Positions 10,064-33,511 of a stretch of 34,611 nucleotides of DNA are shown here, piece after piece (position 1 is the first letter of the stretch; each line of letters starts with the position of its first letter). A program made the translations under genes and the position numbers. The stretch is taken from NCBI GenBank assembly GCA_045613265.1, contig JAZLAP010000145.1:1-34611 (forward strand). Direction: 5' to 3'. The notes beneath the pieces are model-generated. The model ran no database searches, had not been told where the DNA came from, and saw only the letters and a list, made by a program, of their open reading frames with translations. The DNA comes from Eubacteriales bacterium. GTDB taxonomy: Bacteria > Bacillota > Clostridia > Oscillospirales > CAG-272.

Positions 10064-12292
10064 ATGATGAACAAAAAGGAACTGACGGCAGCCGTCAAGC
10101 AAATGGCATACGCACTTGGCGCGGATATGGTGGGCATCGCCCCTGTCTCTCGCTTTGACGGACAGCCGCATATGCTGCACCCGAAGGCGCATCTGCCCGA
10201 GGCAAAATCCGTCATCTGCTTCGGCATCCACCACCCTGACGCATCGGTGGAATGGTGCGGCGAGCCTAACCCGAACTATCCCGAGGCATTCCAGATCGGT
10301 ATGATCCCGAAGCTTGATACGATGTGCTATCGCATTGCTAAAATGCTGGAAAAGGAAGGCTATCCGACGGTCGCACAGCCCTGCACGACCTATTGGCGAC
10401 ACAGAAAATACAAGGATATTCCCTACGAGCACGCCGCAACCTTCAGCCATATGGCGGCATTTGTCGCCTGCGGCCTCGGCGAATACGGTTATCACGGTAT
10501 GGTAATGTCTCCCGAATACGGTCCGCGCGAGCGCATTATTTCCATCATCACCTCGGCAGAGCTTGAGCCTGACCCGCTTTACAACGGCGCACCGCTTTGC
10601 GATGAATGTAAGATGTGCGCCCGTGTCTGTCCGGGCAGAAATTACGAAGCCGAAAAGCTGAACGATCCGAATTTTATTGAGTTTGAAATCGAAGGCAAGA
10701 CCTTCCGTTATCCGAATATTAACCGTTGGCGGTGCTTTTTCGGTGAGCAGGCACATCTTGATACAACGAAGCTCGGCGACATCGTTAAGCTTGATGAAGA
10801 TGGCATCTACGAGGCGATAGACACCGTGCCGCGTATCATTACCCGTAACGGCGGCTATATGTGTAAGTCCTTCAAGCACTGTATGTCGAGGGGCAAGCGC
10901 TATTACGATAAGAAGTATGCACCCGGTCCGCGCCGCAAAAAAGAAAAATCCGACCTTTCAAAAGAGGCTATGATGGCAAAGATCGTCGAGCTTGCCGTCG
11001 CGTCGGGCGCCGACCGTATCAGCGTTGCGCCGCTTTCCGAGTTCGCAGACCACAAGCCGAACTTTGAGGAAGGCTTCCGCACGGAACAGTTCTTCGAGCA
11101 TTTCAAAACCGTGATCACCTTCGGTCGCCTCGTTCACAAGTACAGTAAGGATATTCCGCTCGAGGACAGAAATGCTCTGCACATTCAGCGTCCGACCGAT
11201 GAGCATATGGAGTCGATACTGATTGACGTCAGCCGCTATCTCGACGATCTTGGGTATGATGCCATTCAGGACTGGTATGCTACGGGTATTGCCAAGGAGC
11301 ATGCACGCCGCAGTGGTTGGTATGAAAACGGAAAAGAGGTCTATGCCTTCTCTGTGTTCTGCGATATTCCCTTTGAGAGAGAAAACCGCATTCTGAAAAA
11401 ATTCGAGCTTGAAAGCTTCCCTGCGGTAGATGCTACGCTTCCTCTTTTTGAAAATGTGGAATTTGTCAGCGTCGGAAACGTTGAGGGTATTACATACGAG
11501 GGTATGGAAGCGGTCAAAAAGGTTTACCCGAATGTACGCTCGATCGTGGCAATCGCCTCGGCGATTCCCGAACGAACCGTTGAGCTTGCCTGCCGTCAGG
11601 AGGCGGAAGACGGCGGCCCTTATGCGTACATGCACTACGAAACCCTAAAGGAATCTCTTTGGACAGGCGAAGACCTTTGTGACGCGCTCGAGGCTCGTGG
11701 CTATTTTGCCGTGACGCTCCCCGATCTTGCCCCCGATTCCTATTTGACGATCGGCAAGCTCGGTCGTCATATGCCCGACCTCTATGCAAACGCGCCCTTC
11801 GCCGCTGCGGCGGGACTCGGTGCGATTGGGAAGAGTGGTATGCTTACCCGTGCCGATGTCGGCCCGCGCCTGCGTTATGTGTTCGTGCTCACCGATGCGC
11901 CCCTCACTCCGACCGAACACGCGGGAAAGGACGTCGCTTGCCCCATCGACTGCACCGCTTGCGCCGAGGCTTGTCCGATGAAGGCGCTGTCTCCCGAACG
12001 GCTTATGAACGTAACCGTCAGAGACGGAGAATCTTATCCCGTAATGAAGCGCGATGAGACGCGCTGCATGTGGGCGCGCTCGCTTGCTATGTGCGAGGGG
12101 GCAGGCTCGACGCAGCTCGGTTGGCAGATTCCCGACATCGCCGTTCCCGAAGTGATCACTCCCGAAAAAATAGAAGAAGTGCTTCAGTCAAAGGACAAGA
12201 TACAAACGCTCTGCTACCAATGCCCGAACTTCACGGACATCATCATTGAGCGCTGCTTGCAGGTCTGTCCGATCGGAAAGAAAAAACAATAA
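10064..12292 (+). CDS. Fe-S protein with three tandem epoxyqueuosine-reductase (QueG)/reductive-dehalogenase-like units
   Basis: Unit 1: LGADMVGIAP, LPEAKSVI, SHMAAFVACGLGEYG..GMVMSPEYGPR, CDECKMCARVCP. Unit 2 (no Fe-S motif): SGADRISVAP, FKTVITFG, YLDDLGY. Unit 3: YPNVRSIV, LEARGY, AAAAGLGAIGKSGML..VGPRLR, CPIDCTACAEACP, ERCLQVCP. RBS AAGGAG. Confidence 0.8.
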   Translation: MMNKKELTAAVKQMAYALGADMVGIAPVSRFDGQPHMLHPKAHLPEAKSVICFGIHHPDASVEWCGEPNPNYPEAFQIGMIPKLDTMCYRIAKMLEKEGYPTVAQPCTTYWRHRKYKDIPYEHAATFSHMAAFVACGLGEYGYHGMVMSPEYGPRERIISIITSAELEPDPLYNGAPLCDECKMCARVCPGRNYEAEKLNDPNFIEFEIEGKTFRYPNINRWRCFFGEQAHLDTTKLGDIVKLDEDGIYEAIDTVPRIITRNGGYMCKSFKHCMSRGKRYYDKKYAPGPRRKKEKSDLSKEAMMAKIVELAVASGADRISVAPLSEFADHKPNFEEGFRTEQFFEHFKTVITFGRLVHKYSKDIPLEDRNALHIQRPTDEHMESILIDVSRYLDDLGYDAIQDWYATGIAKEHARRSGWYENGKEVYAFSVFCDIPFERENRILKKFELESFPAVDATLPLFENVEFVSVGNVEGITYEGMEAVKKVYPNVRSIVAIASAIPERTVELACRQEAEDGGPYAYMHYETLKESLWTGEDLCDALEARGYFAVTLPDLAPDSYLTIGKLGRHMPDLYANAPFAAAAGLGAIGKSGMLTRADVGPRLRYVFVLTDAPLTPTEHAGKDVACPIDCTACAEACPMKALSPERLMNVTVRDGESYPVMKRDETRCMWARSLAMCEGAGSTQLGWQIPDIAVPEVITPEKIEEVLQSKDKIQTLCYQCPNFTDIIIERCLQVCPIGKKKQ

Positions 12293-12445
12293 ACAACCGA
12301 ATGCCGCTTGATCATACACACAGCAAGCTGAAAGGAAGCACAATCATGATCGAGCTTTTCGGCAAAGCCGAAGAAGCCATTTTGACGGCTGAGCAAACCG
12401 TCGATAAATGCTCGGTATATAAAAAGATCGTCTCATTCAGCAATG

Positions 12446-12485
12446 CAAAAAGCCAAGGGATTTCAAAAGCTCCCTTGGCTTTTTG
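12446..12485. terminator. Bidirectional terminator between QueG-like gene and M48 gene
   Basis: 15-bp stem CAAAAAGCCAAGGGA / TCCCTTGGCTTTTTG. Confidence 0.8.
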
Positions 12486-12523
12486 GCGCTTAATGAGACC
12501 GCCCCTTTTCACGCACTACCCCA

Positions 12524-13081
12524 CTACTGCTTTTTCAGCAAAGCGGCACGCTCCTTGTAATCGGGCATATACCGTGCAACCAACTCATAAAACCGCTTTC
12601 CGTGATTCTTTTCCCTGATGTGTGCCAGCTCGTGAACGACCACGTAGTCGATCGCTTCTCTTGGGTAACGCATCAAACGGTAAGAAAAGGATATGCCATT
12701 TTCCGGGCTGCAACTTCCAAAACGAGTCTTTGCCGACGTAACACACACACTTTTGGGTTTCAGCCCCATAATCGTAGCATAGTATTGTGTACGCGCAGGT
12801 AAATACTGCTTCGCCGCCGCACGCAATTCTTCGATCTGATCGTCTGAAAGCGGAGGATACGCTGCCTGATATTGCGCCACCCTTTCGCGCGTTCGCGCGA
12901 TCCAAGCCGCATTACGTTCGACGAAATTCAAAATACGCGCAAGCTCGGTGTATAGTGGTGCATATACGATTACGGTTCCATCATTCTGCATCTTCATCGC
13001 TAACGTGCGCCTTTTGCCAGAACGGCGTAACCGATACCCATTCGGCAAAACGCTTTCTGCTATTTTACTTTTCTTTTTCAT
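12524..13081 (-). CDS. YgjP-like / M48 family metal-dependent hydrolase (DUF45)
   Basis: RRSGKRRTL, KTRFGSCS, IDYVVVHELAHIREKNHGKRFY (HExxH). Start moved from 13156 to ATG 13081, which has RBS GAGGGAG. Confidence 0.88.
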   Translation of the reverse strand: MKKKSKIAESVLPNGYRLRRSGKRRTLAMKMQNDGTVIVYAPLYTELARILNFVERNAAWIARTRERVAQYQAAYPPLSDDQIEELRAAAKQYLPARTQYYATIMGLKPKSVCVTSAKTRFGSCSPENGISFSYRLMRYPREAIDYVVVHELAHIREKNHGKRFYELVARYMPDYKERAALLKKQ

Positions 13082-13135
13082 ATCTCCCTCGTATATAGCA
13101 AAACCTTCTAACACTTCAATCGCAATACAGAGAAA

Positions 13136-13166
13136 CGCCCCGTGGATGAAAATCATCCACGGGGCG
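13136..13166 (-). terminator. Terminator of the giant repeat-protein gene
   Basis: Perfect 14-bp stem CGCCCCGTGGATGA / TCATCCACGGGGCG followed by TTTCT on the minus strand. Confidence 0.75.
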
Positions 13167-13215
13167 AAGCTCTTCAGAGAATGTCTCTCCGTCCGAGTAC
13201 AATATAAAGCTTATA

Positions 13216-16200
13216 TTACTCAGCAATGTAAGCCATCATTGCACGGAGCAGATTGGAGAGTGCGTTGGTCTCGTCTGCCACAATCTTGAGTGCAGCATAC
13301 TGAGCAAGGCTGTAGTAGTTGGTATTGCTGATTGCGGTGTTTTCCGCATTGCAAATGGTAGCAGCAAATACCTGACCCCAGTTTGCAGCATCGATCTCAA
13401 CCTCAACAACATACACACCGTTCACGATCTCGCAATCGGCAATCGCGATGCTGTCGTAGATCTTGTCGCCATCCTTGTTCGTGAGAACAAGGCGTGCTCC
13501 CTCGGGAAGGTTGGTGGTGATGTGATAAACAAAGCTAACCTTGTCACCGATCGAAACACCACGGCCTGCAAAGAATGCAGTAGCGTTCTCAATCTTCTTG
13601 GTGGGCACTGCTTCAACAACAGGAGCCTCGGCTACACGGTCAAACGCGAAGGTCTCGGCATCGCCTGCGCAAAGAATACCAGCGATCTCACCAAAGAGGC
13701 GGACCTCAAAGGTGTCAAGGATTGCAGAAAGCTTATCAGTGGTGTAAACGAAGGTGTAAACGCCCTCAACCTCATCGTAGCTTTCGACCTTCTCGCCGTT
13801 CACTTCGATCCATGCAGCATGGTAACGACCAAGATGCGTGTCCTTAACACTGATGGTAAGCGTGATCTTAGAATCAATGGTAGGAACAATCGAAATTGCA
13901 GAGTCAAAGCCAATGAAATCAACAACCTGACCTACTTCGACATCCTGCTCACCGAAGTAAGCAGCGATATGATACGAGCCGCAAACCGCGCAGATCTGGT
14001 AAACGGTATCAGAGATCTCGCTGATGTGATCATGCTCGCACCAGGTGTGACCTGCAGGAATGATGTAGTATTCCTCTACAACACCACATGCACAAGCGGA
14101 TTTTGCAATGCCGGTCGTGTTGCAATCGGTGCTGGGCTTAATAATAACTTCTGCAAATGCGTGGTTGGTTGCATCAAGCTGCTCGCCGGGTTCCGAATCA
14201 TAGGAATCCTTGCAAACAGAGCACTCGAAGTGCGTATATGCACCCTTCTGGCAGGTTGCAGCAACCGAGGTTTCAACGTAGGAGCATTCAGCCTTCTCGG
14301 TCTTGTTGCAAGTAGCACAAACGCGGCTATGCTCGCCGTCAACGGTAACGTATTCGCTCCAGTCATGACCGAGAGCCTTCAGAGTGTCATCGCCCTTGCC
14401 GGTCTCGGGATTGATCGAAGCTACGTAGTGATTGATCGTCTGGATCTCCGTCTGACATACGGAGCAGGAGATAACGGTACGTGCATCGTTCTCACAATCT
14501 GCTGCGTATTCGGTAACAAGCTCGGTGTGCTCAAGCTTCGAGTTTGCTACTTCGTGCTTAACGCCGTCCTTTGCAGCCGAGCAAACGGTGCAGGGGATGT
14601 AAACGAAAGCATTGTGTGTGCAGGTTGCCTCTTCGATATACTCCTCAGCTGCCCAGGTATGCTCGCCGGTTGCATCAATAGCCGCAGTCTCGCCTTCAGC
14701 ACCACAGACCTTGCAGAACTCAGTCTTCTTGCCATCAACGCCGCAGGTAGGATTGGTAACAACCTTGAATTCCATATTGTGACCAGTTGCATCGATCACA
14801 ACATCAACGGACACGCCGCATACCTTACAGGTATCAACACCTGCGCCGGGCTCGGTGCAAGTAGGAGCGGTTACGACCGTACGGTCATAGCTGTGTGCTG
14901 CGGGCATAAGGAAGTAGCCGTTGTTGAGCTTGGAATCGCAAGCACATACGTACTTGCCGATACCGCTTGCCGTGCAGGTAGGAGCCTTTACAACTGCCTC
15001 GGTCCATTCATGGTTCTGAGGATTCTTGGCAGCAGTCTCCTCGGTGTAAGCATGCTTACAATCCTTACAGGTGTAGGTAGTAACTTCCTTCTTCTGGCAG
15101 GTAGCTACCGTAGTAACGGCAGATCCATAGCGGTGTGCCTTCTTCTCTACGTACTGGCAAACCTTACAGGTACGGGTATGCTGATCCTTGTCAGCGTAAG
15201 CATAGCCGCCGTAGGTGTGACCAAGAGCCTTCTCGGCTTCGTCACCGGTCGCCTCGTAAAGGTCTACCTTATCAAACTCGGTCTTACATCTGTCACAAAC
15301 GGAAACGTCAAGACCATTCGTGGTACAGGTGGGCTTACGGTACTCGGAACCATCGGCATCTACGTGACCGAGAGGATCGCCAACCGTAACAACGTCCTTT
15401 TCAGCTTTACATACGGTACATACGGTGTAAACCTTTGCAGCCTCAGTACAGGTAGCGTCCTTGGTCTGCTCGGTTACCCAAGTATGATTGCCGGTAGGAT
15501 TGATTGCAATTGCATCGCCAAAGGTCTTCAGACAAACGGTACAGGTGTCGATCTTCGAGCCGGCAACGCCGCAGGTAGGATTCTTAGTGACAACGATCTC
15601 AGTCTTGTGACCAAGAGCGGGAACCGTGTAATCCTTTTCCTCTACGCCGCAAACCTTACATACGTGAGAAGCTTTGCCTTCACCATCACAGGTGGGGACT
15701 ACGCTGTAAACGGGTTCATCCCACGTGTGTGCAGCGGGAACGAGGTAGTAGGGATTTTCAGGTCTGATCGCGCCACATGCGCAAGCAGCCTTTGCAATAC
15801 CGTTGGTCGTGCAGGTAGGTGCCTTGATGATCAGTTCCTTATCGTAGGTGTGGTTGGTGGGATCCTTCTCACCGGTTTTATTCTGGAAGCTGTGCTCGCA
15901 AACCGTGCATGTAAACTTCGTGTACTCGTAATTCTGGCAGGTTCCGGGGATAATCTCATTCTCCCACTCACAGTTCTCAAAGTCCTCATCACCGCAACGT
16001 GCGCAAACAGCCTTGTGCTTGCCGCCCGTAGCATAAGCAAACTCGCCGTAGTTATGGCCGAGTGCGGGAGAACCGACAGGATTACCGTCTGCACCCAGTT
16101 CCTCGGAAAGATCTACCGTATCAAGGATCTCTTTGCAAACCGTGCAGAAGATCTCCTCGCGCTCGGGATTCTCGCAATCCGCATCATAGTGCTTGGACTC

Positions 16201-18450
16201 TTCCTTATGACCAAGAGCATCGTTCAGGGTCTCAATTCTCGTAGGATCCTTCGCACCGCACGAGGTACATGCAAAATAAATCTGCGTGCCGGTCGTACAG
16301 GTAGCATCCACAACCGTCTCGGTATCGGCATACACGTGGTTGCCGGTAGGATCGATTGCGATCGCTTCGCCAAAGGTCTTTTCGCAAACGAGGCACATCT
16401 CGATCTTCGAGCCTGCAACGCCGCAGGTAGGATTCTTAGTGGTTACAATCTCAGTCGTGTGGTCGAGAGCAGGAACCGTGTAATCCTTCTCCTCTGCGCC
16501 ACAAACCTTACATACGTGAGTTGCCTTGCCTTCACCCTCACAGGTGGGGACTACGCTGTAAACGGGATCGCCCCAAGTGTGCGCTGCTTCGACTACGTAA
16601 TAACCGCCGACAAAGCCGCATTCACAGATCTGCTTCTTGATGCCGTTGGTCGTGCAGGTGGCAGGCTTAATTACCTTATCCTTGCCCCAAACGTGATTGT
16701 CGGTATTCTTTTCGCCTTCAACCTTATCAACAGTATAGCCACACTCGTCACAGGTGTAACGGTTGACTTCTGCCTTAAGACAGGTTGCAACGGAAACGTT
16801 TACTTTATTAAGGGTGCATTCGCTCTCGCTGAGCTTTTCGCCACAGGTCTGGCAGGACACGGTATGGTTGCCGTTCTTGTCGCTGACAGGACTACCGAGA
16901 GTGTGACCGAATGCCTTCAAAGCAGGATCGGCTACGCCCTCGCCGCCAAGTGCCTCGAACAGGTCACGAACGCCGTCCTCAGGCTTGTAAGTACATCTTG
17001 CGCAGAACTGAACTTCCACAGAGTTGGAGGTACAGGTCGCAGGCTTGACTACGTAATCCCAGTCATGACCAAGGGCATTTGCGCCATCAATCACCTTCTC
17101 GGAGCCTTCCTTCACGGCCTGGCATACGGTACAAGCGATCCAGACCTTGCCGGGGTTCAGACAATCGGCATTCGAATGCGATTCGGTATCCGACCAAGCG
17201 TGTTCACCCACAGCAGGAAGCACCTCGGTAGCGCCGCCTTCCTTTACGGTAAGGCACTTGGTACACATTTCAACAGCAAGACCGGTGTTGCCGCAGTTGG
17301 GCTTCGCCGTGGTCACCATATCATACGTGTGGCCCTCGGTCTCAATCGTGTAGATCTCTTCAAGGTTACATGCGCTGCACTTATGCGTTGCCTTGCCGTC
17401 CTCTTCGCAGGTAGCGGGAGTCACGTTGTAATCCTCGCCCCACGTGTGGCCCTTTTCGATGATCATGTAATCACCGGTCGCGCCGCAGACCTTACAAACC
17501 TGTTTGCCGATGCCGTTCATCGTACAGGTAGCGGGCTTGATTGCCTTCACGTCATAATCGTGCTTCGTGAAGTCGAAGCCTGCATCCTCATCCGTCACGG
17601 AGTAGGAGTAACCGCAGGTGCAGGTGTACGTGGTTACCTTGTAGGTATGGCAGGTAGCATCGGTAACGTCGGTGGTATATACGCACTCGATGTTCTCCTC
17701 GATAACCGTTTTGCAGTCGGCACATACCTTATCGTGGGTTCCGTCGCCGTTAGCAACGAGCTTCGTCTCTGCATGTTCCTTCTTCTTCAGGAGGAGATCT
17801 TCAGCACCTGCTGCAACGGATGCCTCGTAAAGGTCGTCTTCGCCTACTACTTCATCGCAAAGCGCACAGTAGGTAACGACCTTGGCATTGTCCTCGCAGG
17901 TAGCGTCGAACGTCTTGTCATAGGTCTCGGGATGATTGAGCGGAGCAAGATCCTCAATCACCTGCTTGTGTTCCAGATCGGCATAGCCGCAAACCGAACA
18001 CTCATAGACCGCATAGCCGTACTCGGTACAAGTAGGATCAACGATCGTCTCGGTTGCATTCCACGTATGCTCGCCGGTCGCGGGAATCACAACGTCTTCA
18101 CCCAGCTTCTGCTCGCAGATCGCGCACCAAAGATACTTGATTCCGCTCTCGCCGCAGGTCGGCTTCTTGGTTACAAGCCAGTCGTTGGTGTGAAGGGGAA
18201 GCTGCTCGTAAACGGGCTTTCCGCAATCGTCACACTTGTACTTTGCAATACCGATCACGCCGGTTTTGCAGTCCGATTTTTTGAGATCGCTCACATGCGT
18301 CTTGTTCTCGTGGCTGCACTCTTCTACAACCTCAGTGATCGTAGAAGTGAAATCATTGGCCTCGTTCTCTTCTGCTGCAAAGGAAGGAATGTACAGCGAA
18401 GAAAGAAGCGTAAGGCAGGCCAAAATGATTGCAAAAATTCTGTTTTTCAT
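13216..18450 (-). CDS. Giant secreted His/Cys-rich repeat protein (~1744 aa) with a non-repetitive C-terminal region
   Basis: ATG 18450 has RBS TGGAGG (track start 18462 is a TTG inside the RBS). Sec signal peptide MKNRIFAIILACLTLLSSLYIPSFA-A. About 36 modules of the form H-x~10-(P/A)TC-x~9-CxxC. C-terminus ends YSLAQYAA..LSNLLRAMMAY. Confidence 0.9.
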   Translation of the reverse strand: MKNRIFAIILACLTLLSSLYIPSFAAEENEANDFTSTITEVVEECSHENKTHVSDLKKSDCKTGVIGIAKYKCDDCGKPVYEQLPLHTNDWLVTKKPTCGESGIKYLWCAICEQKLGEDVVIPATGEHTWNATETIVDPTCTEYGYAVYECSVCGYADLEHKQVIEDLAPLNHPETYDKTFDATCEDNAKVVTYCALCDEVVGEDDLYEASVAAGAEDLLLKKKEHAETKLVANGDGTHDKVCADCKTVIEENIECVYTTDVTDATCHTYKVTTYTCTCGYSYSVTDEDAGFDFTKHDYDVKAIKPATCTMNGIGKQVCKVCGATGDYMIIEKGHTWGEDYNVTPATCEEDGKATHKCSACNLEEIYTIETEGHTYDMVTTAKPNCGNTGLAVEMCTKCLTVKEGGATEVLPAVGEHAWSDTESHSNADCLNPGKVWIACTVCQAVKEGSEKVIDGANALGHDWDYVVKPATCTSNSVEVQFCARCTYKPEDGVRDLFEALGGEGVADPALKAFGHTLGSPVSDKNGNHTVSCQTCGEKLSESECTLNKVNVSVATCLKAEVNRYTCDECGYTVDKVEGEKNTDNHVWGKDKVIKPATCTTNGIKKQICECGFVGGYYVVEAAHTWGDPVYSVVPTCEGEGKATHVCKVCGAEEKDYTVPALDHTTEIVTTKNPTCGVAGSKIEMCLVCEKTFGEAIAIDPTGNHVYADTETVVDATCTTGTQIYFACTSCGAKDPTRIETLNDALGHKEESKHYDADCENPEREEIFCTVCKEILDTVDLSEELGADGNPVGSPALGHNYGEFAYATGGKHKAVCARCGDEDFENCEWENEIIPGTCQNYEYTKFTCTVCEHSFQNKTGEKDPTNHTYDKELIIKAPTCTTNGIAKAACACGAIRPENPYYLVPAAHTWDEPVYSVVPTCDGEGKASHVCKVCGVEEKDYTVPALGHKTEIVVTKNPTCGVAGSKIDTCTVCLKTFGDAIAINPTGNHTWVTEQTKDATCTEAAKVYTVCTVCKAEKDVVTVGDPLGHVDADGSEYRKPTCTTNGLDVSVCDRCKTEFDKVDLYEATGDEAEKALGHTYGGYAYADKDQHTRTCKVCQYVEKKAHRYGSAVTTVATCQKKEVTTYTCKDCKHAYTEETAAKNPQNHEWTEAVVKAPTCTASGIGKYVCACDSKLNNGYFLMPAAHSYDRTVVTAPTCTEPGAGVDTCKVCGVSVDVVIDATGHNMEFKVVTNPTCGVDGKKTEFCKVCGAEGETAAIDATGEHTWAAEEYIEEATCTHNAFVYIPCTVCSAAKDGVKHEVANSKLEHTELVTEYAADCENDARTVISCSVCQTEIQTINHYVASINPETGKGDDTLKALGHDWSEYVTVDGEHSRVCATCNKTEKAECSYVETSVAATCQKGAYTHFECSVCKDSYDSEPGEQLDATNHAFAEVIIKPSTDCNTTGIAKSACACGVVEEYYIIPAGHTWCEHDHISEISDTVYQICAVCGSYHIAAYFGEQDVEVGQVVDFIGFDSAISIVPTIDSKITLTISVKDTHLGRYHAAWIEVNGEKVESYDEVEGVYTFVYTTDKLSAILDTFEVRLFGEIAGILCAGDAETFAFDRVAEAPVVEAVPTKKIENATAFFAGRGVSIGDKVSFVYHITTNLPEGARLVLTNKDGDKIYDSIAIADCEIVNGVYVVEVEIDAANWGQVFAATICNAENTAISNTNYYSLAQYAALKIVADETNALSNLLRAMMAYIAE
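15488..16566. repeat. Pair of ~227-bp closely similar direct repeats (15488-15714 and 16340-16566) inside the giant gene
   Basis: Constant 852-nt (284-codon) offset; shared blocks such as GCAACGCCGCAGGTAGGATTCTTAGTG and TCACAGGTGGGGACTACGCTGTAAACGGG. Confidence 0.9.
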
Positions 18451-18517
18451 TTTTTCCTCCAAGTGGTAGTGTTAGATAAAATTGGTTGCTGTTACGTATG
18501 ACTGTCTTTCTCCCTCG

Positions 18518-18556
18518 TCAGGGGGGCCTCACCCTTTGTCGAAGTTGCTTTTCCAT
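18518..18556 (-). CDS. Leader (upstream) ORF MEKQLRQRVRPP*, candidate ribosome-arrest peptide
   Basis: Strong RBS GAAAGGAG 8 nt before ATG; 12 codons ending AGG CCC CCC TGA; lies between the promoter and the giant gene. Confidence 0.65.
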   Translation of the reverse strand: MEKQLRQRVRPP

Positions 18557-18646
18557 AGCAAATGCTCCTTTCAAATTTTGAATACGATAAGAATTTTGGT
18601 ACGCAACAAGGATTGCGTATTTGCATAGCTCTACCTACGCATGATA

Positions 18647-18675
18647 AGAATACCATAAAAAATCAATTTTGTCAA
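18647..18675 (-). promoter_or_regulatory. sigmaA promoter of leader ORF + giant gene
   Basis: Minus strand TTGACA-17 bp-TATTCT with TGn extension. Confidence 0.75.
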
Positions 18676-19276
18676 GCGTTTGTAAAATTTTTATTCATAT
18701 AAAACGTAAAAAAAACGTTAAATTTCACAAAACTTCACAATTCCTTCACCCAACAACATTTTTTTGGTAAAAATTCCGCGCAAATACAAGCCGTTTTTAC
18801 CCCCATTTCAGAAGGCTGAACAGAATCGGCAAAGTACAGCTCGCTTGCTTTCCGAAGCCTCTGTGCGTGCCGTTATATCCGAACCCAACACCCATTTTTT
18901 TGATATCCGTCGCTTTGTACTCTTACCGTTTTCTTGCGGATACGGATGATGCAAAAACAACGGAATTTTGTCGCATAATCGCGGCCCCGCGAAACAGGTG
19001 TTCGTGCATTGTTCACAAAAATTTAATATTTAAATGTGCCCAAAAACCACGTGGGATTCTTTGATTATAGCATACAAAAAGATATTTTGCAACAATTATT
19101 CGTATTTTTGCAAAAATTCACAATTTGTTTAAATTTAAACCCCCGTTTTTTTACGGCAGCAATTTTGTTACCCGTATGCTCTCCGCGGCTTGCACGCATT
19201 TTTCTCTACATTATATATGTGCGTATGCGCGTATCCGATACTCAATGTATCGACATAGCATGATACAAAAAAGGAC

Positions 19277-19332
19277 TTGCAAAATCAAATTCAACATGTT
19301 ATAATATATGTACGCGACATGTTATAATATAT
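19277..19332 (+). promoter_or_regulatory. sigmaA promoter of the DtxR/MntR gene with a duplicated extended -10 block
   Basis: TTGCAA-17 bp-TATAAT (19277-19305); ACATGTTATAATATAT occurs at 19294-19309 and 19317-19332. Confidence 0.7.
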
Positions 19333-19355
19333 AATGTTGAAAAGGAGGTGCTGAC

Positions 19356-19727
19356 GTGGCACTGCAGGAATCGGGTGAAATGTATCTCGAATCAATTCTC
19401 CGCCTCGAAAAGGAAAAGCCCTTCGTGCGCTCGATTGACATAAGCGAGCACATGAATTATTCAAAGCCCAGTGTCAGTCGCGCCGTAGGACTGCTGAAAA
19501 AAAGCGGGCACATTGACGTTGATAAGGACGGTTACATCCGTCTGACCGACGCAGGACGCGTAGTTGCCGAAAAAATATATGAGCGACACACCTTTCTCAC
19601 AGATTTTCTCGTACGTCTCGGCGTCCCCAAAGACATCGCCGCAAGCGATGCCTGCAAGATCGAACACGTTTTAAGCGATGCCACCTTTTGCGCCATCAAA
19701 GCCTTTGCCGCCACAGACCTTCCATAA
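19356..19727 (+). CDS. DtxR/MntR family metal-dependent transcriptional regulator (short form, no FeoA domain)
   Basis: ESGEMYLESI, VRSIDIS..MNYSKPSVSRAV, IYERH, DACKIEH; RBS AAGGAGGTG, GTG start. Confidence 0.93.
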   Translation: MALQESGEMYLESILRLEKEKPFVRSIDISEHMNYSKPSVSRAVGLLKKSGHIDVDKDGYIRLTDAGRVVAEKIYERHTFLTDFLVRLGVPKDIAASDACKIEHVLSDATFCAIKAFAATDLP

Positions 19728-19819
19728 CGTATGAAGCGTTATTCACAAGCGTAATGTAAGCTACGGTTTACCTTACGCTTTTCTTTTTGCGAATATGTGA
19801 ACAAATTTTGCAATTTGTC

Positions 19820-23994: not shown

Positions 23995-24039
23995 TTATAT
24001 TTGGAAAGTAATTAATTTATTTTAAAGGAGAAAATAGCC

Positions 24040-25338
24040 ATGTCGATGTACAACAAGAAGTCCGTCGAGGACATGGGCGAGATCAAGGGCAAAAAGATCC
24101 TCGTCCGTTGCGACTTCAACGTCCCCATGAAGGACGGCGTTATCACCTCGCTTAAGAGAATCGAAGGAGCAATGCCTACCGTCCGTTACCTTTCGGACAA
24201 GGGTGCCAAGGTCATCCTCTGCTCCCATATGGGTAAGCCCCACAACATCTTCACCGAAGGCTTTGGTCTTTCCAAGAAGGAGAAAAAGGCCGTCGAAAAG
24301 CTTCCCGAGGCAGAACGCGCAGCCGCTACCGAGGAGTACCTCAAGAAGGCGCTGAAGGATAAGGAAAAATTCACGCTTCGCCCGGTTGCCGAAAAGCTTA
24401 CCGAGCTCGGCATCAAGACCACCTTCGCTTCCGACATTGTCGGTGACGATGCGAAAGCGAAAATTGCCGCCATGAAGGACGGCGACGTTATCCTGATCGA
24501 GAATGTCCGCTTTGACGCAGGCGAGGAAAAGAACAAGCCCGAGTTCGCAAAGGCACTTGCCGATCTTGCTGACCTCTACGTAAACGATGCGTTCGGTACG
24601 GCACACCGCGCACACGCTTCCACCGCAGGCGTTGCCGATTACCTCCCCGCATACTGCGGCTACCTGATCGAGAAGGAAATCTCTGTCATGGGTAAGGCCC
24701 TCGAAAACCCCGTCCGTCCCTTCGTTGCCATTCTCGGCGGCGCTAAGGTTTCGGACAAGATCGGTGTCATCAACAACCTCATCGAAAAGGTCGACACGCT
24801 CATCATCGGCGGCGGCATGGCTTACACCTTCTTTGCCGCTATGGGTAACGCTACGGGTACCTCGATCTGCGAGCATGATAAGATCGAGCTCGCACGTGAA
24901 ACGATGAAGCGCGCACGCGAAAAGGGCGTCAACTTCCTTCTCCCCGTTGACAACGTGATCGGTAAGGAATACGACGAGAACACCTGCCATATGCGCATCT
25001 ACTCGGATTGCATTCCCGACGGTTGGATGGGACTTGATATCGGCCCCGTTACCCGCGAGCTCTTTGCAAAGACCATTGAGGGCGCAGGTACCGTTGTATG
25101 GAACGGCCCGATGGGCGTCTCCGAATGGAAGAACTTCGCCGCAGGCACCGAAGAGGTTGCCCGCGCAGTTGCAGAATCGGGCGCCATCTCGATCATCGGC
25201 GGCGGCGACTCGGCAGAGGCTGTAGAACGCCTCGGCTTTGCTCCCAAGATGACGCATATTTCCACCGGCGGCGGCGCTTCCCTCGAGTTCCTTGAAGGTC
25301 TCGTTCTTCCCGGCATCGCTTGCCTTGAAGACAAATAA
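24040..25338 (+). CDS. pgk: Phosphoglycerate kinase (with an N-domain insertion)
   Basis: [60 protein letters not shown]. Confidence 0.97.
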
Positions 25339-25350
25339 GGAGAAACGACC

Positions 25351-26106
25351 ATGAGAAAGACCGTTATTGCAGGCAACTGGAAAATGAACATGACGCCCTC
25401 GAAGACCCGTGCGTTCATCGAAGAGCTTATCCCCATGGTGAAGGGCAAGGATGCATGCGACATCGTCCTCTGCGTTCCCTTCGTTGACATCGCCACCGCC
25501 GTTGAAGCGGCAAAGGGCACGAACATTAAAATCGGTGCTGAGAACGTCCACTTCAAGGAGTCGGGTGCATACACGGGCGAAGTCTCCGCAGACATGCTGA
25601 AGGAGATCGGTACCGAGTATGTCATCGTCGGCCACAGCGAACGCCGTCAGTACTTTGCAGAAACCGACGAGACCGTCAACCTTCGCACGAAGGCTGCACT
25701 CGCCAAGGGCCTCAAGGTCATCCTCTGCCTCGGCGAGCTGCTTGAAGCAAGACAGGCCGGCATTACCGCCGAGATCGTTTCGATGCAGACGAAGCTCGAC
25801 TTCGCGGGTATTCCCGAGGAGGATCTCAAGAACGTTATTATCGCCTACGAGCCCGTCTGGGCAATCGGCACCGGCCTTACCGCTACTCCTGAGCAGGCAG
25901 ATGAAGCCTGCGGCATTATCCGCAACGTCATCCGCGACCTTTACTCAGACAAGGCAGCCGAGGAGATCACGATCCAGTACGGCGGCTCGATGAATGAAAA
26001 GAATGCAAAAGAGCTGCTCTCGAAGCCCAACGTAGACGGCGGACTGATCGGCGGCGCATCGCTCGTTACCGAAAAGTTCACGGCGATCGTTGATGCAGCA
26101 AACTAA
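25351..26106 (+). CDS. tpiA: Triosephosphate isomerase
   Basis: AGNWKMN, GAYTGEVS, GHSERR, AYEPVWAIGTG, YGGS, DGGLIGGASL. Confidence 0.98.
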   Translation: MRKTVIAGNWKMNMTPSKTRAFIEELIPMVKGKDACDIVLCVPFVDIATAVEAAKGTNIKIGAENVHFKESGAYTGEVSADMLKEIGTEYVIVGHSERRQYFAETDETVNLRTKAALAKGLKVILCLGELLEARQAGITAEIVSMQTKLDFAGIPEEDLKNVIIAYEPVWAIGTGLTATPEQADEACGIIRNVIRDLYSDKAAEEITIQYGGSMNEKNAKELLSKPNVDGGLIGGASLVTEKFTAIVDAAN

Positions 26107-29670: not shown

Positions 29671-29707
29671 TGCGATCCTTTCGGAAAACGTATTTTAAAG
29701 AATGCGA

Positions 29708-30598
29708 TCAGTCCTCGGTACCCATGACAATAGATTCGCCCGCAGAGCCTTTTTCCACCGTGACGATGGCGCCCTTTGCCTTCTCGGCAAAATCGGCAAG
29801 CGTGGTCGCATCGTACTTCTCTACGTTCGCCTTGTTGACGACGGCAACCTGCTTGTTCGCAAGGTAAGGAACCGAAATGGTCATGGCGGTAAGGCGGTCA
29901 TTGTCGATCGTCATGCCGTTCCAGACAAGATCGATCGAGCCGTTGTTAAGAAGAGCTTCCTTCGAGTTCCATTCGATCTTAATAAACTCAGGCTCAATAT
30001 TGGTGCTATAGGTCGTGTTGAGGTAATCGATAACCTTCTTCGCAAGATCGATGTCAAAGCCGATCAGCTTTCCGTCGGCACCGTCCTGGTCCATATACGC
30101 GATGGGAGCAAAGATCGTGTAGCCGATGACCATCTTGCCGGATGCGACAAGCTCAGTCCAGGATGCATCGGTCGCATCCTTGTAAGGATCAACAGTGTCC
30201 TTCGTCACGAGAAGCTCGCTGGCAAGACCGTAGGTCTCGGCAATCGTCTTGTAGTCGGTGTCGGCAAGAGCGATCAACGCCTCGTTGATCTTGCTCATCA
30301 AAGCCTCGTTGCCCTTCTTGGCGGCAATACCGTATTCCTCTTCGGCAAAGACCACGTTCGGCAGAACCTGATAATCGTTGAAGGCATCGGTGTCGTTCAT
30401 GTAGTGGCCTGCCATGACCGAGTCGATGACGGCGATATCGGCGTCGCCGCGCTTCAGACCGTTCAATGCGTCAAGCTGGCTCGCAAGAGCAAGGACCTCC
30501 TTACCGTAAACGCCCTTCGTGCCGCCGCAAGCGACGAGCGACATCGGCAGGGTTGCCAGCATCAGAACTGCAAGAATAAGAGTGATAATGCGTTTCAT
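29708..30598 (-). CDS. Amino-acid ABC substrate-binding lipoprotein (family 3), apparently circularly permuted
   Basis: Lipobox LVA-C24. Family-3 motifs all present, but the canonical C-terminal block (DALNGLKRGDADIAVID...EEEYGIA...INEAL) precedes the canonical N-terminal block (GKMVIGYTIFAP...GFDIDLA...IDLVWNGMTI...EKGSAGE). Confidence 0.88.
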   Translation of the reverse strand: MKRIITLILAVLMLATLPMSLVACGGTKGVYGKEVLALASQLDALNGLKRGDADIAVIDSVMAGHYMNDTDAFNDYQVLPNVVFAEEEYGIAAKKGNEALMSKINEALIALADTDYKTIAETYGLASELLVTKDTVDPYKDATDASWTELVASGKMVIGYTIFAPIAYMDQDGADGKLIGFDIDLAKKVIDYLNTTYSTNIEPEFIKIEWNSKEALLNNGSIDLVWNGMTIDNDRLTAMTISVPYLANKQVAVVNKANVEKYDATTLADFAEKAKGAIVTVEKGSAGESIVMGTED

Positions 30599-30660
30599 AA
30601 TAATGTCTCCTTTATGATTAAAAAATACTTTTTCACTTTAGCAGACTCAAGTGATGCTCT

Positions 30661-30689
30661 ATTATAGCACATATTTTTCATTTTGTAAA
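30661..30689 (-). promoter_or_regulatory. sigmaA promoter of the amino-acid ABC operon
   Basis: Minus strand TTTACA-17 bp-TATAAT with TGn extension. Confidence 0.75.
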
Positions 30690-30995
30690 GCCTTTTGCAG
30701 CAGAAAAAAATTTTACGTGGGATATAACAGCCTGTAAAGGTAGCCGGAAGGCAAAATGTCGTACCGCCGACGCAGCCGGAATACAATCCGCCCGAAAAGC
30801 CGACACAATGGTTGCCGCCATTATTTCCATCCTCTCGGAGATAGTCCTGAAACACGTTTGCGGAATCTGTCGTTCGCTAACAACAGACCCCGCAAATGCT
30901 TGAATTATTTTTCTGCCCGGGATTCTTTTAACCCGAAACTACAAAATCATTTCAGCGTGTTGCACTTCTGTTGGCAACTCACTGACAGGATTGGT

Positions 30996-32576
30996 TTATT
31001 CCACTGTCGTAGCCTCTGCAAAGGCACCGCTTCTGACCGCTTCAAAGTCCTCTTCGATCTCCTTCGAGGGCTTCTTTGTAAGCAGCGAAACAACAACGAT
31101 CAAAAGACAGGAGAAGATGAAGGCGGGAAGCAGCTCGTAAATGGCGAACACGCCGCCAATCTTCGCAATCAGGAACTTCCAGATGAAGACCATCGAGCCG
31201 CCGCCCAGCATGCCGGCGATCGCACCGGCTCTCGTCGTTCTCTTCCAGAAGAGGGAAAAGAGCATCAAAGGACCAAAGGTCGCGCCAAAGCCTGCCCATG
31301 CAAAGGACACGATGGTGAAGATCACGCTGTTTTCGTCAAGTGCAATCAGCGCGGCGATCACGGCAATCGCAAGAAGCGTGATACGCGATACCCACATGAC
31401 CTGCTTGTCGCTCGCGTTCTTCTTGAAAATGCCCTGGAACAGGTTCTTCGAAACCGAGGATGCGGCAATGAGAAGATAGGAGTCGGACGAGCTGATGGTC
31501 GCGGCAAGAATACCCGCCATCACGAAGCCCGCAAGGATTGCGGGGAGCGAAGACTGCGCAAGATGAATGAAGATATTCTCTGCGTCGGGCGCGGTGAGAT
31601 ACTGTACAGGATAAAGCTGTCTGCCCACAATGCCGATAAATACGGCAACGGCAAGCGAAATGACCACCCATACCATTGCAATGCGGCGCGAGGTCTTAAG
31701 CTCCTTCTCATGGCGGATCGCCATAAAGCGGAGAAGCACCTGCGGCATGCCAAAGTAGCCGAGGCCCCATGCAAGCAAGGAGCAGATCGTAAGAAGCGAG
31801 TAGGGATTCTTCGCGCCAAACTGCGGAACACCGTCCACAACCGATTGCACACCGTCTACAACCGTCGGATTGGCTATACCGAAAAATTCAAGAAAACCGG
31901 GGATCTCTCCTGCGTTTTTGATCACGGCACCAACACCGCCCGCACTGACCGTGCTGATGATCACGATAATTGCAAGCGCCGAGATCATAACGATACTCTG
32001 CATAAAATCGGATGCACTTTCGGCAAGAAAGCCGCCGATCAGCGTGTAGAACAAAACGAACGCCGCACCGATCAGCATCATTGTCCAGTAGGGTGCACCG
32101 AAGAGCGTGGAAAAGAGCTTGCCGCAGGTAACAAAGCAGCTCGCCGCATACACGGTAAAGAATACGAGAATAAAGATCGCCGCAATCGAGGTGATAAGCT
32201 TTTTCTTCTCGCGGAAGCGGTTGGAGAAAAATTCGGGAAGCGTGATCGCATTGTTAGCGCGCACACTGTAGCGACGGAGGCGCTTGGATACGATCAGCCA
32301 GTTGAGATAGGTGCCGATGGCAAGACCGATTGCCGTCCATGCTGCTTCAGCAAGACCGCACCAATAGGCAACGCCGGGAAGCCCCATCAGCAGCCATCCG
32401 CTCATGTCCGATGCCTCGGCACTCATTGCCGTCACCCAAGGACCGAATGAACGCCCTCCGAGAAAGTAGTTTTCCGAACTCTTGTTTGCGATTTTGTAGT
32501 AGTACAAACCGATGCCAATGACCACCGCCATATAAACGACCATTGCAATCAGCATCTGTATCTGACTTGATGTCAT
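30996..32576 (-). CDS. putP: Sodium/proline symporter (SSS family, PutP/OpuE-like)
   Basis: YFLGGRSFGPWVTAMSAEASDMSGWLLMGLPG, GLGYFGMPQVLLRFMAI, AWAGFGATFGP; RBS AAAGGAG. Confidence 0.9.
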   Translation of the reverse strand: MTSSQIQMLIAMVVYMAVVIGIGLYYYKIANKSSENYFLGGRSFGPWVTAMSAEASDMSGWLLMGLPGVAYWCGLAEAAWTAIGLAIGTYLNWLIVSKRLRRYSVRANNAITLPEFFSNRFREKKKLITSIAAIFILVFFTVYAASCFVTCGKLFSTLFGAPYWTMMLIGAAFVLFYTLIGGFLAESASDFMQSIVMISALAIIVIISTVSAGGVGAVIKNAGEIPGFLEFFGIANPTVVDGVQSVVDGVPQFGAKNPYSLLTICSLLAWGLGYFGMPQVLLRFMAIRHEKELKTSRRIAMVWVVISLAVAVFIGIVGRQLYPVQYLTAPDAENIFIHLAQSSLPAILAGFVMAGILAATISSSDSYLLIAASSVSKNLFQGIFKKNASDKQVMWVSRITLLAIAVIAALIALDENSVIFTIVSFAWAGFGATFGPLMLFSLFWKRTTRAGAIAGMLGGGSMVFIWKFLIAKIGGVFAIYELLPAFIFSCLLIVVVSLLTKKPSKEIEEDFEAVRSGAFAEATTVE

Positions 32577-32968: not shown

Positions 32969-33511
32969 TTGAACGTTTGGGAATTGATTCTGGAGTTTTT
33001 GTTTGGATCCGCACAACAGAATCCTGACAAAATGCCCGACATTGTATACGCAGAACGCTTTACGGTGAAATATCCACGAGAAAGAATCATGACACGGATC
33101 ACAGTCGCTTCGGTGGCAACTGCTGTTTTCGCGCTCCTCTGGCTCTGCATTGAGGGCGCAACACGTTACTTGTTTACCATTTTTACAGTTCTGAGTGCCA
33201 TTCTTCTCCTTCTGTTTCTGTTCTGCTTATCCTTTGAATGCAGCGTGACCGATAGCATGATCCGCTACGCATACTGTGGATTTCTTTTCAAAAAAGAGAT
33301 CCTTTGGGACAACGTTCGCTGCGTAAGGATCGTCGAACGCAACCACGAAAAGGATGTCTCCATCATTCTCTATGACTGCTGCGGACAGGAAACCGTAGAT
33401 TTTCATTCCGAAATGGAGAACGCTTGGTTTATCGTAAAAGCGGCTGAACACCGCGGCATAGAGATAAGAAAGGAACGCGACCTTTCCCTGAAGGAGCTTC
33501 GCCGCCTTTGA
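32969..33511 (+). CDS. Hypothetical membrane protein (2 TM + possible bacterial PH-like domain)
   Basis: RBS AAGGAGG, TTG start; two hydrophobic segments then a beta-rich tail with KEILWDNV; TTGAAA-16-TATAAT upstream. Confidence 0.7.
   Translation: MNVWELILEFLFGSAQQNPDKMPDIVYAERFTVKYPRERIMTRITVASVATAVFALLWLCIEGATRYLFTIFTVLSAILLLLFLFCLSFECSVTDSMIRYAYCGFLFKKEILWDNVRCVRIVERNHEKDVSIILYDCCGQETVDFHSEMENAWFIVKAAEHRGIEIRKERDLSLKELRRL

Follow-up and report, generated by a model that had tools for sequence, protein, structure and literature searches.

The window considered here (the whole stretch of 34,611 nucleotides, contig JAZLAP010000145.1 of assembly GCA_045613265.1, Eubacteriales bacterium) carries on its minus strand a gene whose product is made up, over most of its length, of small modules rich in histidine and cysteine. 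The gene occupies 13216..18450 (-) and comprises 1744 codons and a stop codon (13216-13218); these are exactly the coordinates assigned in the initial annotation, which had been prepared from the letters of the DNA, and the length of 1744 amino acids (aa) is identical to that of the collection's own copy of the protein (P0003). Thirty-six modules, most of them cycling through seven types in five successive super-repeats, form an array that belongs to a large and unnamed repeat family of gut Clostridia. The interpretation to which we lean, with somewhat more belief than doubt, is that of a Sec-secreted protein with a long rigid stalk, in which a beta-ribbon would be stapled by metal (most likely zinc) and neighbouring modules would be riveted by ions that they share.

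The minus-strand open reading frame (ORF) at this position extends over 13216..18462 and would encode 1748 aa from a TTG start; as read from the sequence, the true start is the ATG at 18450, which lies 5 nt behind a putative Shine-Dalgarno element, GGAGG (18456..18460, -). Residue numbers in the following refer to the TTG frame (P0001), and subtraction of 4 gives those of the ATG protein. The chain begins with a predicted Sec signal peptide, MKNRIFAIILACLTLLSSLYIPSFA (18376..18450, -), with cleavage after SFA and before AEE, and this prediction is supported by the beginning MKKRILA.FLAC...AFA of proteins sharing the C-terminal domain. A lipoprotein was considered on account of ILAC (residues 9-12) and set aside, as this Cys would come too early and the hydrophobic stretch runs on to the SFA/A site. 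The mature protein is strongly acidic by composition (270 Asp and Glu against 140 Lys and Arg), and the product contains 112 Cys and 57 His. A motif scan of the 1744 aa returned neither LPxTG nor any hydrophobic segment beyond the signal peptide, and a sortase substrate or a membrane-anchored protein is ruled out on these motifs. The absence of CxxCH from the same 1744 aa rules out a multiheme cytochrome, as had been recognised at the outset.

The array (13981..18318, -; aa 49-1494) contains 36 Cx(1-2)C knuckles and hence 36 modules of 32-50 aa each, the number that had been expected. In a canonical module a His is followed by a first Cys (C1) and then by the CxxC knuckle (C2 and C3). Behind module 1 stand five super-repeats of about 284 aa, all read on the minus strand: super-repeat 1 at 17368..18222 (modules 2-8, aa 81-365), super-repeat 2 at 16501..17367 (modules 9-15, aa 366-654), super-repeat 3 at 15649..16500 (modules 16-22, aa 655-938), super-repeat 4 at 14818..15648 (modules 23-29, aa 939-1215), which is closest to super-repeat 3 (47% identity), and super-repeat 5 at 13981..14817 (modules 30-36, aa 1216-1494), in which module 36 lacks the first Cys. 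The seven types, A to G, are visible in the per-type alignments. In the five D-type modules, the sequence reads H-x3-C-x2-C-x7-9-[C/H], with a His standing at the C1 position, and the E-type modules that follow start with C260, C549, C831 and C1393, yet with H1110 in super-repeat 4.

Since lag autocorrelation of residues was too noisy owing to insertions and deletions, periodicity was measured by aligning all modules against all others. Mean normalised similarity reached 0.32, 0.30, 0.22 and 0.21 at offsets of 7, 14, 21 and 28 modules, against 0.08-0.13 at the other offsets up to 28, and not one of 5000 permutations of module order attained the observed period-7 contrast. The best partner was found at a multiple of 7 for 33 of the 36 modules (the exceptions being modules 1, 4 and 11), and the short D-type knuckles recur at spacings of 290, 283, 279 and 283 aa. 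The five super-repeats align end to end with 36-47% identity (38-47% by tblastn against the organism's own genome), and His or Cys accounts for 31 of the 40 columns that are invariant across them. Thus, the strict seven-module period claimed in the initial annotation is borne out.

At the DNA level, the sole repeat exceeding 40 nt and 80% identity is one of 266 nt and 83%, between super-repeats 3 and 4 (15485-15750 and 16337-16602, 852 nt apart), and it suggests either that gene conversion has acted locally or that part of an otherwise old array was duplicated more recently. As the super-repeats have diverged at the DNA level, collapse or inflation during assembly is unlikely, and the single remaining match indicates an old and maintained super-repeat rather than a recent amplification or an assembly artefact. 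No single public contig spans the gene; public run X1 provides depth in 29 of 30 bins and run X2 in 19 of 30, while the joints in public contigs are few and short-sided (22-34 nt) and hence uninformative on copy-number variants. The seven-type cycle is real, old and specific to this lineage, and it is read as an old tandem duplication of a multi-module block which sets the length of the stalk, and not as a structural heptad.

The fold of the array was predicted with AlphaFold2 for super-repeat 3 and the next 17 residues, from an alignment of 11 rows, of which five were the super-repeats of P0001 and six were stretches of related genomes. In the resulting all-beta model, each module contributes about three short strands; the mean pLDDT is 85.2, and the pTM of 0.42 is as expected of an elongated chain. 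Foldseek returned only meaningless global matches for it (for example, BamB propellers, TM ~0.1) and exhaustive VIA-align gave nothing at Z>=5. The weak local VIA-align matches include G5 stalk domains (RpfB, Z 3.5; IgA1 protease and SasG, Z 2.7), one Rib-domain pair, thrombospondin-type repeats (properdin and CCN3, Z 2.5-2.7) and zinc ribbons (NrdR, a putative ADP-ribose pyrophosphatase and chains of two transcription pre-initiation complexes, all at Z 2.5-2.7 over 38-41 residues).

Known domains are absent from the protein. The Pfam scan at E<=1 reported only PTS_EIIA_1 (12.6 bits, cut-off 27.2), and NCBIfam only TIGR00830, below threshold (15.8 bits, cut-off 97.5); no catalytic or other domain of either collection reached threshold, no zinc-ribbon Pfam model, HEWD (PF20576), SLH or dockerin match appeared at E<=1, and a sequence search of the PDB found no chain at E<=1. 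Among 5.8 billion proteins searched, at least 1255 match at E<=0.001 (7992 scored candidates of 961-3059 aa), the best non-self match having an E value of 1e-191 and the closest relatives being just 29-32% identical. P0001 clearly belongs to an unnamed family of secreted proteins with a GH-x11-C-x9-CxxC-G repeat from uncultured gut Clostridia. The few source names available are 'hypothetical protein' and metagenome genomes of Oscillospiraceae, Acutalibacteraceae, Clostridia and Blautia, and the ESM Atlas neighbours of both the array and the C-terminal domain are solely 'hypothetical protein' clusters. The family spacing is His-x10-13-C-x9-C-x2-C with a linker of 12-16 residues, to which P0001 conforms; the x9 interval is found in 2296 of 2873 family triads. 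No Pfam domain occurs in 93 of the 120 best family matches, while the remaining 27 carry BspA-type leucine-rich repeat (LRR), SLH, dockerin, Big_2, fn3, CAP or subtilase domains, among others. The initial annotation was therefore right that repeats dominate the protein (about 80% was claimed, 83% is found) and that a catalytic domain is missing, though such an architecture is not unusual in the family.

The family is widespread. Matches occur in 75 of 151 genomes (the window's own genome and 150 of its family), and the gene or near-identical DNA is present in runs of eight studies labelled bovine-gut or gut metagenome. The organism's own genome, which is 87% complete, holds the same module in open frames on contigs C295 (1375 aa), C13 (764 aa), C79 (1494 aa), C71 (504 aa) and C74 (958 aa). 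In genomes of the same family, module-bearing open frames extend to 6336 aa (G057:C10, L035), 4525 aa (G057:C25, L034), 4381 aa (G093:C40, L036) and 3920 aa (G107:C18, L032), and L036 also has knuckles resembling type D (GH-x7-CxxC-x7-C-x-H). Two genomes of the same genus contain no orthologue, one giving a weak match and the other none. A pattern search with the super-repeat alignment gave five matches, none of them a relative, and a super-repeat hidden Markov model (HMM) run on the related-genome loci detected few full-length relatives, the best being L002 (136 bits). A full-text literature search found no description of such a repeat, and a term search for 'zinc' in PMC9210967, a survey of fibrillar adhesins, gave no hit.

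One member of the family, P0093, carries the JGI label 'rubredoxin', and CxxC knuckles are a feature in common with that protein. An iron-binding, rubredoxin-like redox chain for extracellular electron carriage is nevertheless scarcely credible: CxxCH is lacking, the centres would be spaced by an estimated ~2.5 nm, too long for electron hopping, and no redox partner genes lie nearby.

The relationship between ligands was approached by direct-coupling analysis of 1094 unique two-module units (effective number 831) from 120 proteins, namely P0001 and 119 family matches. In three column shuffles the maximal couplings were 0.71-0.83, and a one-module version of the analysis agrees. Positions are given below as signed offsets from a ligand, with i and i+1 for successive modules. 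The pair C1-5 and C2-3 is coupled at 5.0 and 4.5 (two modules), which places C1 in the turn of a beta1-beta2 hairpin. C2-2 is coupled with C3+4 (4.0 and 3.5) and C2-1 with C3+1, and these pairs locate the knuckle at the tip of a beta2-beta3 hairpin. The two hairpins put C1 and the knuckle of its own module at opposite ends of beta2; in agreement with the couplings, the strand between them in the model is 6-7 residues long, and by our estimate the two would be ~2 nm apart, too far to bind a common ion. His-2 is coupled with the inner knuckle residue (3.8), His+1 with the knuckle (2.6-2.75) and His+2 with C3+2 and C3+4 (3.2-3.4), a pattern that points to packing of the His region on its own module's knuckle. 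Extrapolation of the beta2-beta3 register would bring C1(i) to face C3+12, beside His(i+1) at C3+13 to C3+15. Across the module boundary, C1(i)+3/+4 is coupled with His(i+1)-5/-6 (2.0-2.5), and C1(i)+1 both with His(i+1)-1, -2 and -3 (1.1-1.3) and with C3(i+1)+2 (1.23); none of the top 50 couplings joins the flank of C1 to its own knuckle.

The ends of the arrays were compared with their interior. With redundancy removed, internal modules retain C1 in 1834 of 1948 cases and array-first modules in 362 of 389, but array-last modules in no more than 237 of 383 (odds ratio 9.9). In the redundant set, 54 of 417 array-first modules have a Cys at 1-3 residues ahead of the His, as do 62 of 2250 internal modules. 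Both ends of P0001 are as a shared site requires: module 36 is without C1, and the array opens with C49-x-H51 (18310..18318, -), a putative N-terminal cap that would supply the Cys otherwise taken from the preceding module. Assignment of shared sites makes ligands of 107 of the 108 array Cys. The script table lists 34 HisCys3 sites and one His2Cys2 site; manual assignment of His1472 turns site 36 into HisCys3 as well, and the total of HisCys3 is then 35 of 36 sites. Furthermore, a Cys occupies the His position in 6 of 14 modules that follow a module with His for C1, against 8 of 1964 following canonical modules (one of those six cases lies in another protein, P0010). With a His for C1 in type D and a Cys for His in the next module, the shared site would remain HisCys3.

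Interchange of Cys and His at ligand positions argues for metal rather than disulfide, as a disulfide would not tolerate such swaps. A metal-free, disulfide-rich extracellular repeat akin to EGF, LDL-A or thrombospondin repeats would suit an extracellular Cys-rich protein, and weak structural matches to properdin and CCN3 (Z 2.5-2.7) point the same way. It is nonetheless very improbable, given three Cys and an invariant His per module as well as the swaps at the same positions. Moreover, the gut habitat is anoxic and reducing, which disfavours disulfides, and the gene is found in gut-metagenome runs. Metal binding of some kind is considered highly probable, and the sharing of metals between neighbouring modules fairly so. 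The initial annotation had allotted about four ligands to each module; the number is right, and the set that holds any one metal is probably drawn from a pair of adjoining modules.

Behind the array lies a C-terminal domain of 254 aa (13219..13980, -; aa 1495-1748), for which no Pfam family was found even at E<=10. Its model (pLDDT 90.8, pTM 0.80) consists of two FN3/Ig-like beta-sandwiches followed by two helices and matches just generic tandem FN3/Ig and CBM-like sandwiches (TMq <=0.28; Z <=9.5, within the common range); the likeness to FN3 and CBM is at fold level only (Z 8-9.5), and SiiE is among the structural matches. The domain is rare and nearly always terminal: a search of 1.84 billion representatives gave only 24 clusters at E<=0.001, three of which match a short internal stretch of the query only, and for 19 of the remaining 21 the match stops no more than 26 residues from the C-terminus. 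The nearest of these proteins bear the same His/Cys array. The more distant ones share chiefly the second half of the domain and carry upstream BspA-type LRR (LRR_5), Big_3, CUB, Laminin_G_3, F5/8-type C, Flg_new or collagen repeats, and the alignment shows a conserved ending, ...SNT..YS...YA....L..L..AMMKYG. The domain is absent from the other repeat frames of the own genome (C295, C13, C79, C71 and C74). Its conservation and its place at the very C-terminus, following binding-type domains of various kinds, suggest a role in attachment or sorting, with ligand binding being equally possible.

These observations can be combined in the following proposal. Each module of ~40 aa would form three strands, in that the His would be followed by beta1, C1 by beta2 and the CxxC knuckle by beta3. 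C1 would lie at the hairpin's far end from its own knuckle and beside the His of the next module, which would pack on the knuckle of that next module, such that one metal would be held by C1(i), His(i+1) and CxxC(i+1). Every ion would rivet two adjoining modules, and 36 modules would become one continuous rod, roughly 80-100 nm long if ~2.5 nm per module is allowed. The array would be closed at both ends, with the C-x-H cap replacing the upstream Cys and the last module having lost a useless C1. Old tandem duplication of a multi-module block would have produced seven types in five super-repeats and a longer stalk, while the C-terminal tandem beta-sandwich would be the functional end, most likely holding the stalk on the cell envelope or else binding a ligand. 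The metal-stapled filament proposed in the initial annotation is thus the best-supported interpretation; we infer it from the invariant His and Cys, the Cys-His swaps, three Cys per module, the elongated all-beta model and the weak likeness to zinc ribbons and G5 domains.

Several points weigh against this proposal. Among the couplings cited, those between modules have the lowest scores (1.1-1.3, against a null maximum of 0.83), and they could arise without contact, as super-repeats fix the order of module types. C1 is kept in 62% of array-last modules and in 81% of isolated single modules (100 of 123), and a cap Cys is found in just 13% of array-first modules, so that the sharing rule is not absolute. 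The spacing from His to C1 has a standard deviation (sd) of 1.2, tighter than the 2.0 from CxxC to the next His, which taken alone would favour a site within one module. Related sequences are non-independent, and P values consequently overstate the evidence. Pfam and motif scans found no LPxTG, SLH, dockerin or membrane anchor, and no recognisable adhesive tip domain was detected, on which ground the protein would not fit the definition of fibrillar adhesins. The C-terminal domain occurs once only in the 87%-complete genome, so that attachment to the cell is a putative one. Expression is represented by three short contigs from one study, whose libraries may contain DNA.

The tight His-to-C1 spacing and the isolated modules that retain C1 are among the grounds for regarding each module as a self-contained HisCys3 domain resembling a zinc ribbon (His-x11-C-x9-CxxC), the modules then being strung like beads on a flexible tether or spacer. 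Further grounds are the compactness of the linear motif H-x(10-12)-C-x9-C-x2-C, the binding of metal within a single domain in classical zinc ribbons, and the presence of such ribbons among the weak structural matches. Counting in the sequence cannot by itself decide to which site a His belongs, as a His precedes 283 of 300 array-first triads and also follows 194 of 210 array-last triads. Nevertheless, the strongest couplings and the predicted strands separate C1 from its own knuckle by the estimated ~2 nm of a 6-7-residue hairpin, and the selective loss of C1 from array-last modules would go unexplained. Self-contained modules would also need mixed sites in P0001, namely His2Cys2 in the five D-type and Cys4 in four E-type modules, and they would leave Cys49 surplus and the last module lacking one Cys. 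Independent beads are accordingly rated as unlikely, and a continuous ribbon with shared ions is preferred.

The initial annotation had further taken the heptad to imply a higher-order structure, for which the family gives no support. The same periodicity measure applied to 119 family proteins yielded a period of 7 in P0005, P0010, P0034, P0040 and P0006; of 5 in P0004, P0058, P0082, P0029 and P0030; of 6 in P0027, P0028, P0041, P0060, P0064-P0069 and P0083; of 4 or 8 in P0018, P0053 and P0108; and of 2 in P0073, P0077 and P0115, while many showed no period. Typing of 67 proteins with HMMs built from the seven types of P0001 (a procedure that is circular for P0001 itself) found ABCDEFG five times over in P0001 alone; its relatives have only parts of the order in common with it, for example B-C-(E)-F-G, and seven types in a fixed order are not a conserved unit of the family. 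Homologues with other repeat numbers, for which the initial annotation had advised a search, do exist. P0124, P0125, P0126 and P0129 resemble P0001 in the type of their signal peptide and end in the C-terminal domain found there; between these ends lie ~19, ~7, ~10 and ~19 knuckles, respectively, with no ABCDEFG order in any of them. C-x-H opens the mature chain in P0124 (CAH), P0129 (CTH) and P0126 (CAH) and sits 10 residues in (CLH) in P0125. Such variation in array length between conserved ends is the behaviour of a spacer or stalk.

The stalk gene looks monocistronic, with a promoter-like site ~200 nt upstream of the ATG (TTGACA-17-TATTCT with TG extension, 18647..18675, -) and, 50 nt past the stop codon, a terminator-like hairpin (13136..13166, -) with 14 pairs, including 10 G-C pairs, and next to it the T-rich run TTTCTCTGT. 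The promoter-like site is a match to consensus, a second one occurs at 19064-19092, and such sites are no commoner in the region than in shuffled sequence. Rfam reported no riboswitch or other element in the ~200-nt leader or within 12400-19800. Exact contigs from two RNA-library runs of one study cover 13169-13407, 13482-13682 and 18207-18462 and give a weak hint of transcription; contig X19 (13169-13407) stops just before the terminator stem and another ends at 18462, 12 nt 5' of the ATG; these are ends of contigs, not of reads, and hence do not define the ends of a transcript. TTA, CTA and TCA codons are all missing from the gene, although the usage in 17 genes of the neighbourhood predicts ~9.5 of them (P ~6e-5); such a bias is compatible with high expression. 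The lack of these codons keeps open a second long frame in exact codon register on the other strand (13522..18501, +; 1659 aa, low-complexity product), and this antisense ORF is read as a shadow of strong codon bias.

Downstream of the stalk gene lies a gene for a YgjP-like metallopeptidase. Upstream and divergent are a DtxR-family repressor gene (19356-19727, +) and then a Na+/H+ exchanger-family gene, and genes of glycolysis, starch metabolism and ABC transporters farther away complete an ordinary chromosomal context. Two exact copies of a 16-nt motif, at 19294-19309 and 19317-19332 (-), 23 nt apart from start to start (0.07 expected by chance), are likely to be the repressor's own operator. 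Control of the stalk gene by the DtxR-family protein was considered and rejected, the motif being absent from the stalk promoter region and more than 600 nt away.

The divergent metal repressor bears on a further possibility raised in the initial annotation, that of an extracellular metal sink or buffer which sequesters or stores zinc or another thiophilic metal at ~36 ions per chain. In addition to the repressor, the 36 predicted sites and the codon usage permitting high expression would be in keeping with it. Against this, the repressor's 16-nt repeat occurs only upstream of its own gene (19294-19332), no metal transporter is linked beyond the Na+/H+ exchanger-family gene, and the repeats of the family are placed as spacers next to domains of adhesin type and of enzymes. 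In structural Cys3His sites, moreover, zinc is held very firmly and is not readily released. The sink thus finds no specific support and is regarded as improbable.

Elsewhere in the window, a 537-aa ORF without Pfam match (24022-25635, -) is antisense to a phosphoglycerate kinase gene (24040-25338, +) and is probably another shadow ORF. For three consecutive ORFs, at 29702-30667, 30756-32450 and 32969-33511 (+; 321, 564 and 180 aa), Pfam gave nothing at E<=0.001. A 742-aa protein encoded at 10064-12292 (+) gives weak matches to 4Fe-4S ferredoxin-type models only (whole-protein E 1e-6 to 5e-4), with no single stretch of the protein passing alone, and has no other Pfam assignment.

Among known systems, the zinc-ribbon fold (the NrdR N-terminal domain and the ribbons of transcription factors) resembles the predicted stalk module in having a CxxC knuckle at the tip of a beta-hairpin, small three-stranded sheets and four Cys/His ligands. 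The stalk modules differ in being extracellular and arrayed 36 times, and their sites would be HisCys3, with one true knuckle per metal and ligands probably drawn from two successive repeats. The H-x3-C-x2-C knuckle, which recalls HEWD (PF20576), is in P0001 one position of the seven-module cycle and does not form an array of its own. Nebulin and titin likewise arrange small modules under a higher-order repeat, with seven types in nebulin, but they are eukaryotic, intracellular and unrelated. Their super-repeat period matches that of a partner filament, whereas the period of the present family varies among relatives.

The stalks of fibrillar adhesins (SasG/Aap E-G5, Rib and SiiE BIg) are also long tandem arrays of small beta domains in secreted proteins, with copy numbers that vary among relatives and an elongated shape, which is here a predicted one. 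In place of a hydrophobic core or isopeptide bonds, the present stalk would rely on metal-thiolate sites, and it has no recognisable adhesive tip domain, LPxTG or other known anchor. Fibrillar adhesins are defined by tandemly repeated stalk domains, one or more adhesive domains and a cell-surface anchor; P0001 possesses the first in its 36 modules, shows with regard to the second no Pfam domain and a C-terminal domain that is FN3/CBM-like at fold level only, and lacks a recognisable surface anchor. On a wider and more tentative view, which we would not back at even odds, the protein may represent an unrecognised class of extracellular fibre, a single-chain beta-ribbon with repeats locked by zinc shared in the manner C1(i)-His(i+1)-CxxC(i+1). 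The stiffness and length of such a fibre (~36 rivets, ~90 nm) would depend on metal and on the reducing gut, and the seven-type cycle could add a surface register of ~18-20 nm for lateral packing or docking of partners.

The gene comes from a bacterium of the cattle gut, as indicated by the labels of its runs (bovine or other gut metagenomes), and one in two of the genomes searched from this bacterial family has genes for large proteins of the same His/Cys module, for which there is no Pfam, NCBIfam or PDB sequence match and on which no paper was found. The seven-type cycle itself is a lineage-specific curiosity and no general principle. With its near-pure array, defined caps at both ends and diverged, clonable repeats, P0001 provides a convenient model for the family. 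If the stalks are indeed riveted by zinc, a metal-dependent type would be added to the stalk domains of bacterial surface proteins, annotators could recognise more than 1000 largely unannotated proteins, and the surface architecture of these bacteria would be tied to the zinc supply and redox state of the gut.

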